Assembly (NCBI GenBank): GCA_036279215.1
Contig: DASUJO010000020.1
Location: 1-39,195 of the forward strand
Length of the DNA: 39,195 bases
Origin: Candidatus Saccharimonadales bacterium
GTDB taxonomy: Bacteria; Patescibacteriota; Saccharimonadia; Saccharimonadales; UBA10212
Direction of reading: 5' to 3'
The translations under genes and the position numbers were made by a program. Under the pieces are notes generated by a model. It had not been told where the DNA came from. It ran no database searches and saw only the letters and a list, made by a program, of their open reading frames with translations. This document shows, piece after piece, positions 9,990-16,568 of this stretch. Each line of letters starts with the position of its first letter. Position 1 is the first letter of the stretch.

Positions 9990-10017
9990 TAAGGGGTATT
10001 ATAGCTTAATTCAAACT

Positions 10018-10046
10018 AAAAACGCGGCCGTATGCGGCCGCGTTTT
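10018..10046 (-). terminator. Intrinsic terminator after the response-regulator gene (symmetric A/T flanks, possibly bidirectional)
   Basis: An 8-bp GC stem CGCGGCCG/CGGCCGCG (10023-10030/10035-10042) with a 4-nt loop. It is flanked by AAAAA (10018-10022) and TTTT (10043-10046), which reads as hairpin + TTTTT on the minus strand. It lies 18 nt past the stop at 10064. Confidence 0.7.
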
Positions 10047-10063
10047 ATATCCTTCTGGTCGGT

Positions 10064-10876
10064 TTATACGCCAGCTGGGGGCGGTGTCGGCGCTTCGCCT
10101 TCTGGCTTGGGCGGTTCGGCCGGAGGCGTGTCGCCTGCCGGAGGCATTGTCGGTGCGCCACCCATTGAACCGGCATCAGCCGGAGGTGTTACGGGCGCGG
10201 CCGGATCGGCCGGAGCAGCCGGATCTGCCGGTGTTGCCGGCTGGTCCGCGGGCGCGCTGGCCGCGAAATCATTAACTTGGTTATTAACAGCGTTTTGCTC
10301 TTGAGCGGTGCTCATAGGATCGCTACCCGGGGCAGACGAGCTGTCGCCGCCCGTTACCGGATTGTCGCCAGCTGGCTGGTCACCTGCCGGTGGCGTCATG
10401 GGGTTGGTATTGTCGTTTTGCATATTCTGCTCGCTTTCTTGCTTGTTATTTGATTGACCCTCTTGACCGTTTGGTGGTTCCGCCGAGCCCGCGGCGGCTT
10501 GCTTCCCGTCGGGCGGCAAGACTTCGCGGACTACGCGAACGAAATCTTCCAAGGTGACTTGGGACTTCACGAGGTATTTTACCACGCCCAGCTTTTCGCC
10601 GCGAGCGCGGTCCTCCGCCTGGCCTAAAGCCGTCATCATTATCACCTTGGTGGCGCTCATTTCCGGCGACGACCTTAGTGTTTCAAGCATTTCGAAACCG
10701 GACAGCTTGGGCATCATCACATCAGCTATTATCAATGCCGGCTTCTCTTTGGTCGCCACCCCCAGGGCCTCTTCGCCGTCGCTGGCGCTAAGCGTATCAT
10801 AGCCTTCAGCCTGCAAGCGCATCTCGAAGATCTCCCGCAGGTTGTTGTCGTCTTCTACTAGTAGGACTTTAGGCAT
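10064..10876 (-). CDS. Response regulator, receiver (CheY-like) domain only, with ~150-aa Pro/Ala/Gly/Asp-rich low-complexity C-terminal tail
   Basis: 'KVLLVEDDNNLREIF...ALIIADVMMPKLSGFEMLETLR...KVIMMTALGQ' is a REC domain. The tail reads '...ADQPATPADPAAPADPAAPVTPPADAGS...PPAEPPKPEGEAPTPPPAGV'. No DNA-binding or enzymatic output domain is recognisable. Confidence 0.85.
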   Translation of the reverse strand: MPKVLLVEDDNNLREIFEMRLQAEGYDTLSASDGEEALGVATKEKPALIIADVMMPKLSGFEMLETLRSSPEMSATKVIMMTALGQAEDRARGEKLGVVKYLVKSQVTLEDFVRVVREVLPPDGKQAAAGSAEPPNGQEGQSNNKQESEQNMQNDNTNPMTPPAGDQPAGDNPVTGGDSSSAPGSDPMSTAQEQNAVNNQVNDFAASAPADQPATPADPAAPADPAAPVTPPADAGSMGGAPTMPPAGDTPPAEPPKPEGEAPTPPPAGV

Positions 10877-12284: not shown

Positions 12285-13529
12285 TCAATCTATGTAGTCT
12301 TTTATGCTGCCGAAGGCGATGCGCTGCAGTATGACGCCCTCCATGCCCTGCATAGCGGCCGGTATGACCGTGTATTCGCCCCAGCGGTCATTAATCGAGT
12401 CCAGCGCGTCCGATAGCAGCCTGGAGTCGCACCGAGTACCGCCGAAGATGCTGAGCTGCTGCGGGTCAACCGGCCGCAAGCCGTAAACCGAAACCGATAT
12501 ATGCGTTGCCAGGTCGGGCAGATATGCCTCTTCCAGCAGTTTGCCGGCGTGGAAGAATATCTCGTCGTTGGAGTACATGGCGGAACCGGTGCTGCGGCTT
12601 TTAGCCCACCAGTCGCCCGACTGGAAACCCAAAGACAGGTGTATGCCGCGCGCCAGATACCCCTGTTTCCTCATGCGGCGGCCGGCTTTGTAGCACAGCT
12701 TCATCAGCAGCCGCGCCAGCTCGGCCCGGTCGCGCGTCTTGACCTTGATGGCGTAATTGTGGCCGATGGATTTTCTGGCGAAGCGCCGGTCATCCACCTC
12801 GAATCCCCTGAGACGGGCGTACCACTGGTCACCGACGATACTCTTAAAAACCCGCCGCTTCAGCTTGTCCTGCGAGGCGGCCAAAAATTGCAGCGGCGTA
12901 AAGATTCCGGCTTCGTTCAGCCGGGCTTCGTAGCGGTAATTTATACCGGTCAGGTCGGTCAGCGACAGGCGCCCGTATATGGAAAGCGCGTTGGAGGCGT
13001 CCATTACGTTCAGGCCGTCGGGTTTGTTCAGGCCGGCGGCCGTTTTGGCCCAGAAGCGGCTGGCGCCGATGCCTACGTTGACGGTCACGTACGAGCCGAC
13101 GCGGTCTTTGATTTTGTGCTTTATCTCGTAGCCTATATCTATCAGGTCCCTGCCCTCGCGGACAGCCGGGCTGCCGGCAAAATCAATCACGAACTCATCT
13201 ATGCTTTTGTCGTACACGCTGCTGGTGTATTCGTCTACCACTTCTTTGAACAGCCGGTGGGCGGCGATGTATTTGTGCGGGTCGGGCATCAGCACGATAA
13301 CGCCTGGGTCTAGAGCCCGGGCCTCGCCGACGTTGACGCCCAGCTTGATGCCCTTGGCTTTGGCTTCGTAGCTGCTGGCTATCACCATCCCCCTAGGCGT
13401 ATCGTAAGCCGCCACCGCTACCGGCTTGTTGCGGTACAGCGGGTTAGCTTGCTGCTCCACAATGGCAAAACAGCTGTTTAGGTCTATGTGCATTACCAGC
13501 GGACAGGATTTGTTAAGTAGATAATCCAT
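12285..13529 (-). CDS. Y-family (translesion) DNA polymerase, UmuC/YqjW-like
   Basis: 'MHIDLNSCFAIVEQ', 'VAVAAYDTPRGMVIASSYEAKAKGIK' (UmuC-style 'NNDGCVIA' position) and 'IDEFVIDF', followed by little-finger-like C-terminal sequence. The ATG at 13529 overlaps the upstream 88-aa ORF by 17 nt. An alternative ATG at 13493 ('MHIDLNS') is possible. Confidence 0.85.
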   Translation of the reverse strand: MDYLLNKSCPLVMHIDLNSCFAIVEQQANPLYRNKPVAVAAYDTPRGMVIASSYEAKAKGIKLGVNVGEARALDPGVIVLMPDPHKYIAAHRLFKEVVDEYTSSVYDKSIDEFVIDFAGSPAVREGRDLIDIGYEIKHKIKDRVGSYVTVNVGIGASRFWAKTAAGLNKPDGLNVMDASNALSIYGRLSLTDLTGINYRYEARLNEAGIFTPLQFLAASQDKLKRRVFKSIVGDQWYARLRGFEVDDRRFARKSIGHNYAIKVKTRDRAELARLLMKLCYKAGRRMRKQGYLARGIHLSLGFQSGDWWAKSRSTGSAMYSNDEIFFHAGKLLEEAYLPDLATHISVSVYGLRPVDPQQLSIFGGTRCDSRLLSDALDSINDRWGEYTVIPAAMQGMEGVILQRIAFGSIKDYID

Positions 13530-13779
13530 CGCTGACGACTTCCAAGACCCAAGTGAGCTCTTTGGTGTTGAAGTTCAGCCTGAAGGCCAGCGTTTCATCC
13601 TTGTCTACCACCTCGAATATGTGGTGCCAGGTATCGCCGTGCTTATACTTGTGCGGGAACCCCAGCTCGCCTATCACGTAATCGCGGTTTTTCCAGCGTA
13701 TGGTGTAAGGCATGGTGATGTTCCGCCGGGAGCTGTAATAGCTGACCACGCTGACCTTTTGGTTTATCTTTTCGCGCAT
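13513..13779 (-). CDS. Orphan 88-aa protein in the UmuD/YolD position upstream of the polymerase; paralog of 14669-14932
   Basis: It has a strong SD (AAAGGAGGAACAAAAAATG). It is translationally coupled to the polymerase. It shares 'VxVVxYY', a 'P...(I/V).(W/F)' segment and a C-terminal 'F..(D)......L.F......W.L' pattern with the 87-aa ORF. I recognise no family. Confidence 0.7.
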   Translation of the reverse strand: MREKINQKVSVVSYYSSRRNITMPYTIRWKNRDYVIGELGFPHKYKHGDTWHHIFEVVDKDETLAFRLNFNTKELTWVLEVVSDGLST

Positions 13780-13874
13780 TTTTTGTTCCTCCTTTAAAAT
13801 ATATTTATGGTTTCCACGCCTGCCGCATTTAGGCTAGTTTTGGTGCGACGCTGCGGAGCGCAAGCGAGGCGTAT

Positions 13875-14672
13875 ATGAAATACGGCGAGCACGGACCGCA
13901 AAGCGGCAAGCCGGAAATAGCCAAAAAGCCAGCGGCGCGGCCAGCTGTGCTGGACGGCAGGCTGACTGGTGCGGAAGGTGTGGTTGATGATGGGTGCGGG
14001 CGGTATGTACTTCAGGTAAAAGCCAAAGACCTGGCCAAGCGGTACAACCTGGCCAAGGCGCCGGACGGCATCCGCGAAAACTTCAACGTGGCCCCGGGCC
14101 AGACGCTTCCGGTGGTGATAGAACCGGACGAAGGCGGACGGCGCGTAGAGATGATGAGATGGGGCCTGGTGCCGGCGTGGGCCAAAGACCTTAAGATTGG
14201 CTACAAGCTCATCAACGCCCGCGACGACACCATCTTTGACAAGCCGATGTGGCGCGGCGTGGTGCTGAAAAAGCGCGCCCTGATACCGGCCACCGGATTT
14301 TACGAATGGCAGAAGCCGGCCGAGCCCAAAGCGCGCAAGCAGCCCTTTTATATACATCCTAAGCAGGCCGGTATATTCTCTTTTGCCGGCGTCTGGAGCG
14401 GCTGGGCCGACGCCGAAGGCAAGCAGTGGCAGACCTACTCGATCATCACCACCGAGCCGAACAAAGAGATGTCCAAGGTCCATAATCGCATGCCGGTCAT
14501 CCTGGATCCCGATGACGAGGCGGCCTGGCTGGACCCCGCCAAGACCGCCCGCCGGGACATCGAGCCGTTTCTGCGCCCCTATCATGACGGCGGCCTGGAA
14601 GTCTTCCGCGTAAGCGACGAAGTCAATTCGCCAACCAATAACGATAAGCATCTAATCAGCCCTGCCGCTTAA
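13875..14672 (+). CDS. SRAP (SOS-response-associated peptidase; YedK/HMCES family) abasic-site processing protein with a non-canonical N-terminal extension
   Basis: 'CGRY' (Cys codon 13995-13997), 'RWGLVPAW', 'INARDDTI', 'RALIPATGFYEWQ' and 'HNRMPVILDP' are SRAP hallmarks. The only in-frame starts are the ATG at 13875 (GAGG 5 nt upstream) and the GTG at 13980, so the start is uncertain. Confidence 0.8.
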   Translation: MKYGEHGPQSGKPEIAKKPAARPAVLDGRLTGAEGVVDDGCGRYVLQVKAKDLAKRYNLAKAPDGIRENFNVAPGQTLPVVIEPDEGGRRVEMMRWGLVPAWAKDLKIGYKLINARDDTIFDKPMWRGVVLKKRALIPATGFYEWQKPAEPKARKQPFYIHPKQAGIFSFAGVWSGWADAEGKQWQTYSIITTEPNKEMSKVHNRMPVILDPDDEAAWLDPAKTARRDIEPFLRPYHDGGLEVFRVSDEVNSPTNNDKHLISPAA

Positions 14673-14932
14673 GCGCCGATTGACAGCAGTTTCCAGCTGG
14701 CGTCGGCGGCGTCAAACTCCAGCTGGTAGCTGGCCTGCCCGTCGCTCATCCGAAACAGCTGGACCTGCCGCCCGGCTTTATTTAGCGGCCGGCGCCGCCC
14801 GTTGTCGGTGAACACTACGCTTCTGCCGTCAAACTCCACCTTTTTGGGGAAGCCCAGCAGACGCCGCCCGGCGTTTTTAAAGTAATAGCCCACGACGTTC
14901 ACCTCTTTGTTAAGACCTGTAACTTTTTCCAT
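14669..14932 (-). CDS. Orphan 87-aa protein, paralog of 13513-13779
   Basis: Its SD (GCAGGAGGAACTCAAAATG) shares the 9-mer AGGAGGAAC with its paralog. Shared protein motifs include 'VNVVGYY' vs 'VSVVSYY' and 'YQLEFDAADASWKLL' vs 'FRLNFNTKELTWVLE'. It is GC-rich like the rest of the block. Confidence 0.65.
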   Translation of the reverse strand: MEKVTGLNKEVNVVGYYFKNAGRRLLGFPKKVEFDGRSVVFTDNGRRRPLNKAGRQVQLFRMSDGQASYQLEFDAADASWKLLSIGA

Positions 14933-15127
14933 TTTGAGTTCCTCCTGCTGAAATCTGGGTTAATTAAAAGAGAACCGATTCACCTTGGGGGTGTCAGCAG
15001 ACGGATTTGGCGCCCGGCTACCAGCTAAGAACGATGACCGTCTATCACGGTTCCATGACTGGGAGCGTAAGTGTATGTAAGTCTGCGAGGAGGAATCCTA
15101 GCGGAAGCCCTCACATGGCTAATGCTT

Positions 15128-15157
15128 ATTATAGGCCTGCCAGCGCGTACTTTTCAA
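15128..15157 (-). promoter_or_regulatory. Near-consensus promoter TTGAAA-18-TATAAT driving the 87-aa ORF with a ~190-nt leader
   Basis: On the minus strand, TTGAAA (15157-15152), an 18-nt spacer, and TATAAT (15133-15128). The ATG is at 14932. Confidence 0.5.
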
Positions 15158-15199
15158 GCATTAAATTCAGACACCGCTATGGTTTTTCACCTCTGTTTT

Positions 15200-15208
15200 T
15201 GCTAAAAT
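15200..15208 (+). promoter_or_regulatory. Extended -10 element TGcTAAAAT upstream of tRNA-Glu
   Basis: The 13-mer TTTTTGCTAAAAT is the same as at the 7557-7585 promoter. It lies about 128 nt upstream of the tRNA 5' end. The -35 is weak. Confidence 0.35.
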
Positions 15209-15335
15209 TATATCCGTTCTAATTACAAAAACGCGGCATCTGGTCGAGCCATGTTTTTGAGAGGAGGAAGCGAGCCGAGGCTGCAAATAAGCAAATTATT
15301 CTTGTTTACGAAAGCCGTTGCCTCGATTCCGACGC

Positions 15336-15410
15336 GGTCCCATCGTCTAGTGGTTAGGACACTGGGTTCTCATCCCAGCAACAGGGGTTCGACTCCCCTT
15401 GGGATCACCA
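15336..15410 (+). tRNA. tRNA-Glu (anticodon CTC), CCA encoded
   Basis: Hand-folded cloverleaf: acceptor GGTCCCA/TGGGATC (one G-U), D arm GTCT..GGAC, anticodon stem CTGGG/CCCAG with loop TTCTCAT, T arm AGGGG-TTCGACT-CCCCT, then A-CCA. It closely parallels E. coli tRNA-Glu. Confidence 0.9.
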
Positions 15411-16568
15411 CTATTGATTTGATTGTGCGGCCGGCTTCGGCGCGGACCAAGTGACCTGGTTGGTGGCGCCGACAGCTACTAACCAAGTCTGGCCGGCGTC
15501 GAGCGCGATGGTTTTGCCGGCGCTATCCGTGAACGAGAATTGGGATGAGCGGTTTTTCTTGTGCCAGACGCCTTTAGTGACATTGCCGTCCTGGAAAACG
15601 TACATTACACCTTTACCGTAAGTATTGTACCGGCTGTGGTAGCCGTCTGACTCTATGCCGTAAGGCATCACCAGCGCAACCAGAACCTTAGGATGAATCT
15701 GTTTTGGGTGTTTATCGTTGGGTGAGGCAAGCTGGACGTGCTTAGCGCCTCCCTCGCTGCGGTAATAAGTATTGCTTTTGGCGTCGTATTTATAAGACGA
15801 GTTATAGCTGCCGCTGGATATATTTACATTGATGGTAACCGCTTTTGGCGTAGGCAGCGGCTGATCGTCTTTGCGCTCCCAAGAAGTAAACTTACTATGT
15901 TTATAACCTTTGGATTTATTTAATTTATCCAGGTTCTTAAAGCTTGTGTACATGTTATGCGGCGCGGCTCGTGATGACTGGCGCCAATATGCCCCGGGGT
16001 TAAAGAACTGGTCTAAATCTTTGCCTTTGCTCCTAATTTGTTTAAGGGCTTCCGGGCTGCCGCCCACATGCGCTATGCCGGCGTCAAACGGCGTCGCCCA
16101 GTCTATGTAATAAGGGCGCAGCGATCGCACCGGGCCGACGTATTGCGGCTGAGACTCCTGGAATAAAGACAAGAACCGGGTAATCCCTGCTTCAGCGATA
16201 GCTTCATAAACCACCCCTGCTTCGTTAAGGCCGGATTGCGGCCGGGCATCTAGACTGTTCTCTATCATCACGCCTGTGACCGGCCGCTCGGCCAACGCCG
16301 GGTCCACCTGCATTCCGGTTAACGGCGACGCAACAGTTTTGGGCGGTATCTCATGATGTTCGCCGATGATTACATCAGGTTGCGAATCCGGCTGGATGAG
16401 GGTGAAATAACCCAGGGCTGCGGCGCCGAACAGCAGGAGCGCGGCGCTGATTATTCCAAAACGCAAATTCCGGCTAAGGCCCTTCCACCAATGCTTAAGG
16501 CGCTGCCAGAAGTTCATTTTAAGTTGGTCGCCCGCCCCTTTTGGCGGTTCTTCTATATCTTGGAACAC
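15411..16568 (-). CDS. DUF3048 (YerB-like) membrane-anchored protein
   Basis: N-terminal TM 'FGIISAALLLFGAAALGYFTLI', then 'VMIENSLDARPQSGLNEAGVVYEAIAEAGITRFLSLF' and 'RSLRPYY', typical of DUF3048. The stop abuts the tRNA-Glu 3' end. Confidence 0.75.
   Translation of the reverse strand: MFQDIEEPPKGAGDQLKMNFWQRLKHWWKGLSRNLRFGIISAALLLFGAAALGYFTLIQPDSQPDVIIGEHHEIPPKTVASPLTGMQVDPALAERPVTGVMIENSLDARPQSGLNEAGVVYEAIAEAGITRFLSLFQESQPQYVGPVRSLRPYYIDWATPFDAGIAHVGGSPEALKQIRSKGKDLDQFFNPGAYWRQSSRAAPHNMYTSFKNLDKLNKSKGYKHSKFTSWERKDDQPLPTPKAVTINVNISSGSYNSSYKYDAKSNTYYRSEGGAKHVQLASPNDKHPKQIHPKVLVALVMPYGIESDGYHSRYNTYGKGVMYVFQDGNVTKGVWHKKNRSSQFSFTDSAGKTIALDAGQTWLVAVGATNQVTWSAPKPAAQSNQ

Follow-up and report, generated by a model that had tools for sequence, protein, structure and literature searches.

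Standalone ImuB-C proteins encoded beside active Y-family DNA polymerases, often together with SRAP and LexA, were described in 2013, 2019 and 2026 by Aravind et al. (PMC3765255) and by Timinskas and Venclovas (PMC6511836, PMC12926913). ImuB-C is a β-rich domain of ~80 residues with a conserved C-terminal Trp and basic residues, and was suggested by Aravind et al. to be a DNA-binding domain (PMC3765255); AlphaFold models put it in protein–protein contacts, and its fold has no relative in the PDB (PMC12926913). In operons of the prototype, lexA-imuB-C-polY of Geobacter sulfurreducens (GSU0042), a small (~80–90 amino acids, aa), all-β protein with a C-terminal Trp is encoded directly upstream of an intact Y-family polymerase with a RecA-NT/DUF4113-like C-terminus, and SRAP genes are frequent neighbours (PMC3765255, PMC6511836, PMC12926913). 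The locus reported here shares these features, its RecA-NT-like segment being putative, and lies in a 39,195-nucleotide (nt) stretch of DNA from Candidatus Saccharimonadales bacterium (NCBI GenBank assembly GCA_036279215.1, contig DASUJO010000020.1, positions 1–39,195); this whole stretch is called the window, and all positions are those of the window. It contains genes for a Y-family polymerase (Pol), two small proteins (A and B) and an SRAP protein. We consider it likely that the block at ~12285–15157 is a Saccharibacteria-specific variant of the module formed by an active Y-family polymerase and a standalone ImuB-C-like protein, here with SRAP, that was imported recently and carries an RNA leader before B. 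The kind of module is already known; what is new is the variant in the candidate phyla radiation (CPR), where two accessory/polymerase pairs exist, and, most surprisingly, an uncatalogued structured RNA before the first gene. In contrast to the Geobacter-type operons, lexA was found neither in the operon nor in the window, and two diverged paralogs occur in one locus. Unlike the ImuB-C modules surveyed so far, it belongs to a CPR/Saccharibacteria host, which those surveys do not mention, its sequences fall below the DUF6504 thresholds, and it has a structured RNA leader. DNA-damage tolerance and the control of mutagenesis in ultra-small, host-dependent CPR bacteria are essentially unstudied, and our literature search turned up no publication that connects translesion synthesis, ImuB-C or LexA-type control with Saccharibacteria or Patescibacteria. 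The locus indicates that a compact toolkit of polymerase, probable ImuB-C and SRAP is present in these organisms and is exchanged at a hot spot linked to a tRNA gene.

An earlier note on this DNA had regarded the block as a horizontally acquired damage-tolerance module in which an unrecognised small-protein family takes the role of UmuD or YolD, one copy being wired to the polymerase and the other to SRAP. The four open reading frames (ORFs) were re-found at the positions given there (Table 1): the ATG of Pol lies 17 nt inside A, and the stop codons of SRAP and B share the sequence TTAA (14669–14672). ORF calls and a tRNA scan confirmed the gene coordinates, the overlap, the shared TTAA and the position of tRNA-Glu. 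The arrangement follows the operon logic of Pol V (UmuD′2C) and of Bacillus YolD/YqjX–UvrX/YqjW, where a small gene lies upstream of, and overlaps or abuts, that of a Y-family polymerase with a conserved C-terminal tail.

Relatives of the locus (labelled L002 to L178; metagenome, reference-genome and plasmid examples) were collected by neighbourhood sampling, from 80 reference genomes by DUF3048-anchored synteny, and by a metagenome scan with family A (80 loci), and gene linkage was assigned from domain envelopes. Two polymerase lineages, PolA (which includes the window Pol) and PolB, were distinguished, and genes of the B clade are called b. The preferential linkage of the small-protein homologs to Y-family polymerases that the earlier note expected was found: A precedes PolA in 72 of 72 loci, b precedes PolB in 16 of 16, and the 17-nt A/PolA overlap is conserved wherever coordinates were compared. 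In nearly all loci sampled, a small-protein gene stands directly before a Y-family polymerase gene. A/PolA and b/PolB form two co-evolving pairs. The overlap would couple translation of A to that of Pol, with A as an accessory subunit of Pol and B possibly as a second one; the complex would be a RecA-dependent mutasome like the PolY–[ImuB-C]–RecA type that others have proposed. After dereplication, 46 PolA loci had upstream sequence of 1.5 kb or more; among these, SRAP divergent from A–PolA was seen in 23, A–PolA in 11, b–A–PolA in 7, b followed by SRAP divergent from A–PolA in 4 (window included), and SRAP divergent from A–A–PolA in one. The b–SRAP–A–PolA and b–A–PolA arrangements recur in independent lineages. 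Since b is found directly before PolB or before A–PolA, the B-clade genes are polymerase-operon genes. Two metagenome contigs (L118 and L150) each carry two separate A–PolA cassettes, ~5–6 kb apart.

These counts bear on the proposal of an entirely new family that would stand in for UmuD or YolD, A serving only the polymerase and B only SRAP. For window A and B, searches of Pfam, NCBIfam and PDB sequences gave no match, B and SRAP share their TTAA stop, and a direct hhalign comparison with ImuB-C was not significant, all of which would fit this proposal. The family as a whole is, however, enriched in matches to DUF6504/ImuB-C (see below), b precedes polymerases in all 16 PolB loci and A–PolA in 11 more, and SRAP is divergent from A in 28 of the 46 loci, most of which have no b gene at all. 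Moreover, B and SRAP are convergent, a minority arrangement, so that their co-transcription is impossible. The proposal is largely refuted by the linkage counts and we hold it to be very improbable; the wiring of A to the polymerase stands, that of B to SRAP is not supported.

The description of A and B as diverged paralogs proved correct. Their pairwise BLASTP match is weak (E value 0.006), but the profiles of the two conserved families (44 clusters for A and 13 for B at 90% identity) match over 81 columns (hhalign probability 98.6%, E value 8e-16). An exhaustive hidden Markov model search with the joint A+B profile retrieved 589 representative clusters, nearly all of ~86 aa. An AlphaFold2 model of A, computed from a 94-sequence alignment, has eight β-strands and no helix (predicted local distance difference test 93, predicted TM-score 0.82). 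Foldseek found nothing significant for this model in the PDB (best E value 0.095, TM-score 0.38), and a PDB sequence search with the A+B profile gave chance-level matches only. Neither window protein had a match in Pfam, in NCBIfam or among PDB sequences. Identity with YolD (PF08863) or UmuD (S24 peptidase) was rejected, because no Pfam family matched A or B at E values ≤1, and neither YolD nor the S24 peptidase was among the top 25 Pfam families matched by 94 family members. In this respect, and in the eight-stranded β model lacking a PDB match, A and B differ from the small partners in the Pol V and YolD systems.

The Pfam family that the small proteins do approach is DUF6504. Its identity was probed with seven genuine ImuB proteins encoded in imuA-imuB-dnaE2 operons on plasmids: DUF6504 matched the extreme C-terminus of four of the seven (best E value 3.8e-7; 30.7 bits, cutoff 24.2), one of them above the cutoff, and DUF6504 is therefore taken to be the domain that Aravind et al. 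(2013) defined as ImuB-C (PMC3765255). In the wider family, 17 of the 94 members matched DUF6504 (best E value 1.2e-5), and in family A 7 of 26 did so (best 3e-3); all other Pfam families were matched by far fewer members and with weaker E values. The traits of ImuB-C recur in the small proteins, which are ~80 aa long and all-β; W77 shows little or no variation in A, in A+B or among the 94 sampled sequences, and R67 is invariant in A and present in at least 90% of A+B. The A/B family therefore probably joins the ImuB-C superfamily, by a transitive link through one Pfam model. With that link the family ceases to be an unrecognised one, standalone forms being already published (PMC3765255, PMC6511836, PMC12926913). 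The ImuA–ImuB–DnaE2 mutasome likewise has the ImuB-C domain (via DUF6504) and an association with SRAP, which in the plasmid loci L177 and L178 lies by imuA-imuB-dnaE2; in the window, by contrast, the ImuB-C-like protein is separate, the Y-family enzyme is intact, and neither ImuA nor DnaE2 is found in the locus. A small Nocardiopsis ORF upstream of a DnaE2-like gene was considered as another standalone ImuB-C and rejected, because it looks like a membrane protein.

Pol matched the Pfam families IMS (E value 1.4e-28) and IMS_C (3e-15), and the catalytic motifs HIDLNSCFA and KSIDE are conserved in 55 PolA and 12 PolB sequences; to judge from these motifs, it is a catalytically intact, divergent Y-family enzyme. 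The earlier label “UmuC-like” is right as to the Y family and wrong as to UmuC: identity is 27% to Escherichia coli UmuC and 26% to DinB, and the NCBIfam Pol IV model scores higher (176 bits) than that of UmuC (60 bits against a UmuC cutoff of 431), all scores being below cutoffs. No S24 peptidase gene was found in the Pfam scan of the window. Residues 372–393 match DUF4113 weakly (E value 0.06), and the conserved C-terminal segment “A.D.IN.r.GE.Tv.PA” aligns with the DUF4113 region of UmuC; we infer that this segment corresponds to the RecA-NT-like motif of the literature. The PolA and PolB lineages are ~41% identical, and the window Pol is 69–72% identical to PolA. PolB enzymes (L005, L016–L030 and L069) have an extra conserved C-terminal tail, PFGsTRYFELL, which PolA lacks, and canonical B proteins (P0047–P0057) have an extra C-terminal tail of 10–20 residues that is found neither in A nor in B of the window type. 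These two tails may form a co-evolving contact.

Upstream of B, a σ70-type promoter-like site with 11 of 12 consensus matches was found, whose TATAAT box is retained in L009 and L011, and the ~190 nt between this site and B contain a structured element. Its core consists of an outer helix, P1 (15066–15064 and 15062–15059 with 15024–15021 and 15019–15017, interrupted by a conserved 1×1 mismatch), a hairpin, Pa (15048–15045 with 15037–15034), and a pseudoknot (15044–15038 with 15004–14998), in which the Pa loop (UAGACGG or UGAACGG) pairs over 6–8 bp with a strand further downstream (CCGUCUG or CCGUUCG). The core is followed by a second hairpin and a U-rich tract (~14993–14959), widely conserved by eye, and then by the Shine–Dalgarno (SD) sequence AGGAGGAA at 14946–14939. 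In a 14-sequence seed, 92% of cells were paired, compared to 26–52% with slid partners, and 9 of 18 pairs showed compensatory changes. A covariance model built from P1 and Pa only, with the pseudoknot left out, was searched against 1.38 Mb; each of the 28 matches lay immediately before a b gene, on its coding strand, and half of them (14) were new relative to the seed. Among the 25 distinct sequences derived with the model, 92.4% of cells were paired (23–45% when slid) and 15 of 18 pairs covaried by double changes (0 of 500 shuffles), including all seven P1 pairs; the pseudoknot was 92% paired, with four covarying pairs. A minimum free energy fold of the single sequence recovers P1 and Pa, and also pairs the 3′ strand of the pseudoknot with the B ribosome-binding site, as a predicted alternative. 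Rfam 15 (4227 families) gave no match to the leader at E values ≤10, and a permissive scan of 14880–15340 gave two chance-level matches (E values 3–5) off the core.

The most plausible view of the element is that of a cis-regulatory leader confined to ImuB-C-like b genes, which would work either in the manner of a riboswitch or by binding a protein; it had not been described before and may control the first gene, B. Another view, that it is an independent small RNA, a terminator region of the upstream genes or a remnant of a tRNA-linked recombination site, could draw on its position in the hot spot proximal to tRNA-Glu, on a conserved “CTCTTTTTATAAC” that could be a −10-like box instead of a terminator tail, and on terminator-like hairpins farther upstream in some loci. 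Against this, its orientation and its distance to the b start (70–120 nt) are fixed whether tRNA-Glu is adjacent, inverted or across the cassette, covariation supports a folded RNA on the b-sense strand, and the covariance model found no match, in the 1.38 Mb searched, at loci with tRNA-Glu but without a b gene. We therefore regard an element unrelated to B as improbable.

Expression would enter via the promoter-like site and the pseudoknotted leader, which would act as a cis-regulatory switch by attenuation, plus SD sequestration in the window lineage, at a locus where no LexA gene or box was seen. The earlier note had called the regulation of the block unexplained; with a promoter-like site and a conserved structured leader before B this is no longer wholly so, and its report that no LexA gene is present was borne out for the 26 window proteins scanned. 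Sequestration of the SD by the 3′ strand of the pseudoknot was rejected as a general mechanism, as it holds in a subgroup only. B, A and Pol share the minus strand, and SRAP alone, between B and A, runs the other way, so read-through from the B promoter into A–Pol is conceivable; a minus-strand terminator-like hairpin in the spacer between A and SRAP means that A–Pol may have its own promoter. An extra conserved 5′ block (…CAGACU…GCAUACAC-optional hairpin-GUCCCUGC…), which may be an optional RNA domain, lies ~60–130 nt upstream of many leader cores (L016, L018, L021, L022, L028, L103–L155, L012 and L014) and is missing in the window, L009 and L005.

PreQ1-II, SAM-II and guanidine-III are pseudoknotted riboswitches or leader RNAs with terminator expression platforms. 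The leader resembles them in its core of ~75 nt, with an outer helix, an internal hairpin with a loop pseudoknot, and then a hairpin and U-tract before the ribosome-binding site. To our knowledge, ImuB-C-like or translesion synthesis genes are not associated with any known riboswitch class. Tentatively, the leader could represent a hitherto unknown class of riboswitch, or an RNA that the ImuB-C-like protein binds to regulate itself, gating mutagenic translesion synthesis in Saccharibacteria by RNA-based control where other bacteria use LexA, with b and A as a heteromeric, UmuD′2-like accessory pair. If the leader is a sensor, it would offer a testable handle on the trigger of error-prone synthesis in a lineage whose window showed neither LexA nor a LexA box, and would join the orphan riboswitch candidates as a new member with unusual associated genes. 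A rival reading holds that the small proteins are not Pol subunits but nucleic-acid-binding sensors or regulators, b binding its own leader in an autoregulatory loop and the leader being a protein-binding site rather than a metabolite riboswitch. The exclusive position of the leader upstream of b genes (28 of 28) would suit this, as would the existence of solo b genes, possible weak leader copies at solo b genes without a nearby polymerase, and the proposal that ImuB-C is a DNA-binding domain (PMC3765255). The strict adjacency of A and Pol with their conserved 17-nt overlap, however, argues for stoichiometric co-production, and AlphaFold models place ImuB-C in protein–protein contacts (PMC12926913). 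This rival is unlikely in our view, and accessory subunits remain the preferred reading.

The foreign composition that the earlier note had reported was upheld by computation over the full window. The GC content of the block is 57.8%, compared to 50.5±1.8% in non-overlapping 2.65-kb windows (z≈4), and ranks first among 731 windows of 2.65 kb; the GC content at third codon positions (GC3) is 0.73–0.76 in all four block genes (29 long ORFs, 0.59±0.06), and the tetranucleotide distance is 0.29, as against 0.185±0.018 with a maximum of 0.248. Synonymous divergence (dS) from the closest relative, L009, is 0.45–0.73 in the four block genes and ~2.0 in the flanking kinase gene, and nucleotide homology with L009 stops at ~15135. 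In relatives with resident B–PolB, the GC excess is merely +0.5 to +4.5%. The block is also not universal: the DUF3048-anchored scan found GltX–DUF3048–(tRNA-Glu)–B–PolB–kinase in its slot in at least 12 species-level relatives and SRAP/A/PolA there in none of the 80 syntenic reference genomes, and the same slot is empty in more distant Saccharibacteria. The foreign composition together with the low synonymous divergence points to recent import of the whole block. The tRNA-Glu locus of relatives holds B–PolB, b–A–PolA, SRAP/A–PolA or nothing. The cassette varies both in orientation and in the side of the tRNA on which it lies, and by this variation the DUF3048/tRNA-Glu/kinase interval stands out as a hot spot of recombination. 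We infer that the whole block, including B and its upstream region, was exchanged recently, presumably by recombination, at this tRNA-Glu-linked hot spot. The horizontally acquired damage-tolerance module of the earlier note is in this sense retained, with its foreign composition and low dS, and without its new small-protein family and its B–SRAP wiring.

The tRNA gene lies between PolA and the kinase gene in L117, L123 and L149, and the cassette is inverted in L120 and L121. Between the window and its closest relatives, a ~230-bp segment with tRNA-Glu(CTC) (window 15184–15415 vs. L009:47–135 and L011:308–535) is inverted relative to both flanks, and a search for inverted repeats flanking it gave weak candidates only. 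Among B–PolB loci, the orientation of the tRNA in L005, L006, L018 and L020 differs from that in L016. A phage origin was rejected, because no relative of A was found on IMG/VR viral contigs; the A locus L002 adjoins genes with weak Terminase_2 and helix-turn-helix matches.

Since relatives hold B–PolB in exactly this slot, B might be a decaying relic, left truncated and functionless when SRAP/A/PolA displaced a resident PolB. Window B is a long-branched sister of canonical B in a neighbour-joining tree, lacks the C-terminal tail and has a nonsynonymous divergence (dN) ~3-fold above that of A or Pol, as would be expected of such a relic. On the other hand, its dN/dS ratio against L009 is 0.18, its ORF and ribosome-binding site are intact, and its predicted promoter and structured leader are fully conserved. 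B also has the foreign GC3 (0.727) and the low dS of the block, which indicates that it travelled with the cassette, and b–SRAP–A–PolA and b–A–PolA recur in independent lineages. The chance that B is a relic seems small, and we prefer the view that it belongs to the imported module.

Several results count against parts of the reading favoured here, that of an imported, leader-controlled polymerase module of the ImuB-C type. DUF6504 matched none of the 13 members of family B and neither window A nor window B, and hhalign comparisons of the small-protein family with ImuB C-termini (two, then seven sequences) were not significant (probability <5%); because of these misses and the null profile–profile test, ImuB-C membership is probable, not proven. 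A solo subfamily of b-like proteins of 91–92 aa (L012–L015; P0263, P0272) has no polymerase within 7 kb, on contigs of up to 1.7 Mb; by eye, these loci show P1-like and pseudoknot-like features, and their unfiltered covariance model matches are marginal (E values 0.09–0.9) and comparable to noise matches. The terminator-like hairpin of the leader is short and was not flagged by a generic terminator scan, and the alternative pairing with the SD is significant only in the window subgroup. As for the import, the low dS of the block could partly come from GC3 or codon bias, and no integrase (among the 26 window proteins), att repeats or viral relatives were found.

SRAP matched its Pfam family over nearly the full profile (E value 1.1e-72, positions 2–214 of 214) and SRAP structures in the PDB (2f20 at 8e-33, plus HMCES and YedK), and the CGRY, NAR, YEW and HNRMP motifs are present; it would shield abasic sites in single-stranded DNA. 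It shares the full-length match and the motifs with the SRAP/YedK/HMCES proteins, but in the ORF as drawn its catalytic Cys stands at position 41 instead of position 2, after a conserved DDG and with no in-frame ATG directly before it. Residues 1–40 could be a leader or propeptide, or the start may be mis-called; with a GTG start at 13980, the leader would be 5 residues long (MVDDG|C). A DD[G/A]|CGRY junction occurs in 16 loci, 13 of them outside the window lineage, while ~30 other loci start canonically with M-C; in the leader-type loci (including L002, L098–L100, L102, L129, L139, L154, L164 and L166) the leader is 5–9 residues long, compared to 40 in the window ORF. As no Met precedes the Cys, exposure of its α-amine needs processing other than Met removal, which implies removal of a propeptide in the DDG-type SRAPs, possibly by the self-cleavage proposed by Aravind et al. 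2013 (PMC3765255). Such variants are a natural test of that long-standing proposal.

In the window, 215 nt separate the start of A from the Cys codon of SRAP, compared to 45–57 nt in the nearest leader-type relatives and 22–38 nt in M-C-type loci. This spacer is 99.5% identical to those of L009 and L010, while the flanking genes are 83–92% identical, and its fold has a z-score of −3.66; the terminator-like hairpin mentioned above lies within it (13946–13927, terminator scan). Copies with ~70% similarity occur twice in intergenic DNA of L120. The spacer may be a small inserted repeat or insulator element that extends the SRAP ORF in frame. In most loci with SRAP divergent from A–PolA (~24, e.g. 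L140, L127, L143, L096, L133 and L114), the SRAP Cys codon is 22–38 nt from the A start on the opposite strand, which implies back-to-back, overlapping ribosome-binding regions with promoters inside the opposite genes.

Table 1. Features of the polymerase block and its surroundings (positions in the window)
Feature	Position	Strand	Remarks
PolA, Y-family DNA polymerase	12285–13529	−	Pfam IMS and IMS_C
A, 88-aa ImuB-C-like small protein	13513–13779	−	17-nt overlap with Pol start
Spacer of 215 nt, A start to SRAP Cys codon	13780–13994	no strand	Ultra-conserved, strongly structured
SRAP (YedK/HMCES family), ORF as drawn	13875–14672	+	Pfam SRAP; catalytic Cys codon at 13995
B, 87-aa ImuB-C-like small protein, b clade	14669–14932	−	Without the C-terminal tail of PolB-linked B proteins
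Predicted 5′ leader of B, ~190 nt	14933–15122	−	Covariation; covariance model core 14994–15069
σ70-type promoter-like site	15128–15157	−	Predicted; TTGAAA-18 nt-TATAAT
tRNA-Glu(CTC), landmark of the variable locus	15336–15410	+	tRNA and Rfam scans

The window looks like a segment of a Saccharibacteria (CPR/TM7) chromosome. The neighbours of the block are housekeeping genes (TopA, DprA, Pth, Der, a PAS histidine kinase, a response regulator, DUF3048, GltX, sortase, an AddA-like helicase and ThyA), and the taxon-named homologs are all from Saccharibacteria, except for one metagenome-assembled genome record labelled Nitrosopolaris. LexA, RecA, integrase and transposase were not found among the 26 window proteins scanned, and an Rfam scan of the window at gathering thresholds detected two tRNAs and nothing else. 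An 868-aa ORF at 316–2922 matches TrwB_AAD_bind, T4SS-DNA_transf and DUF87 weakly, which are domains of type IV secretion coupling proteins or HerA-type ATPases. The response regulator beside the PAS kinase (10064–10876) has a low-complexity C-terminal tail of ~140 residues rich in Pro, Ala, Asn and Gln, and this tail is the source of the other local GC peak (61% at 10001–10500).

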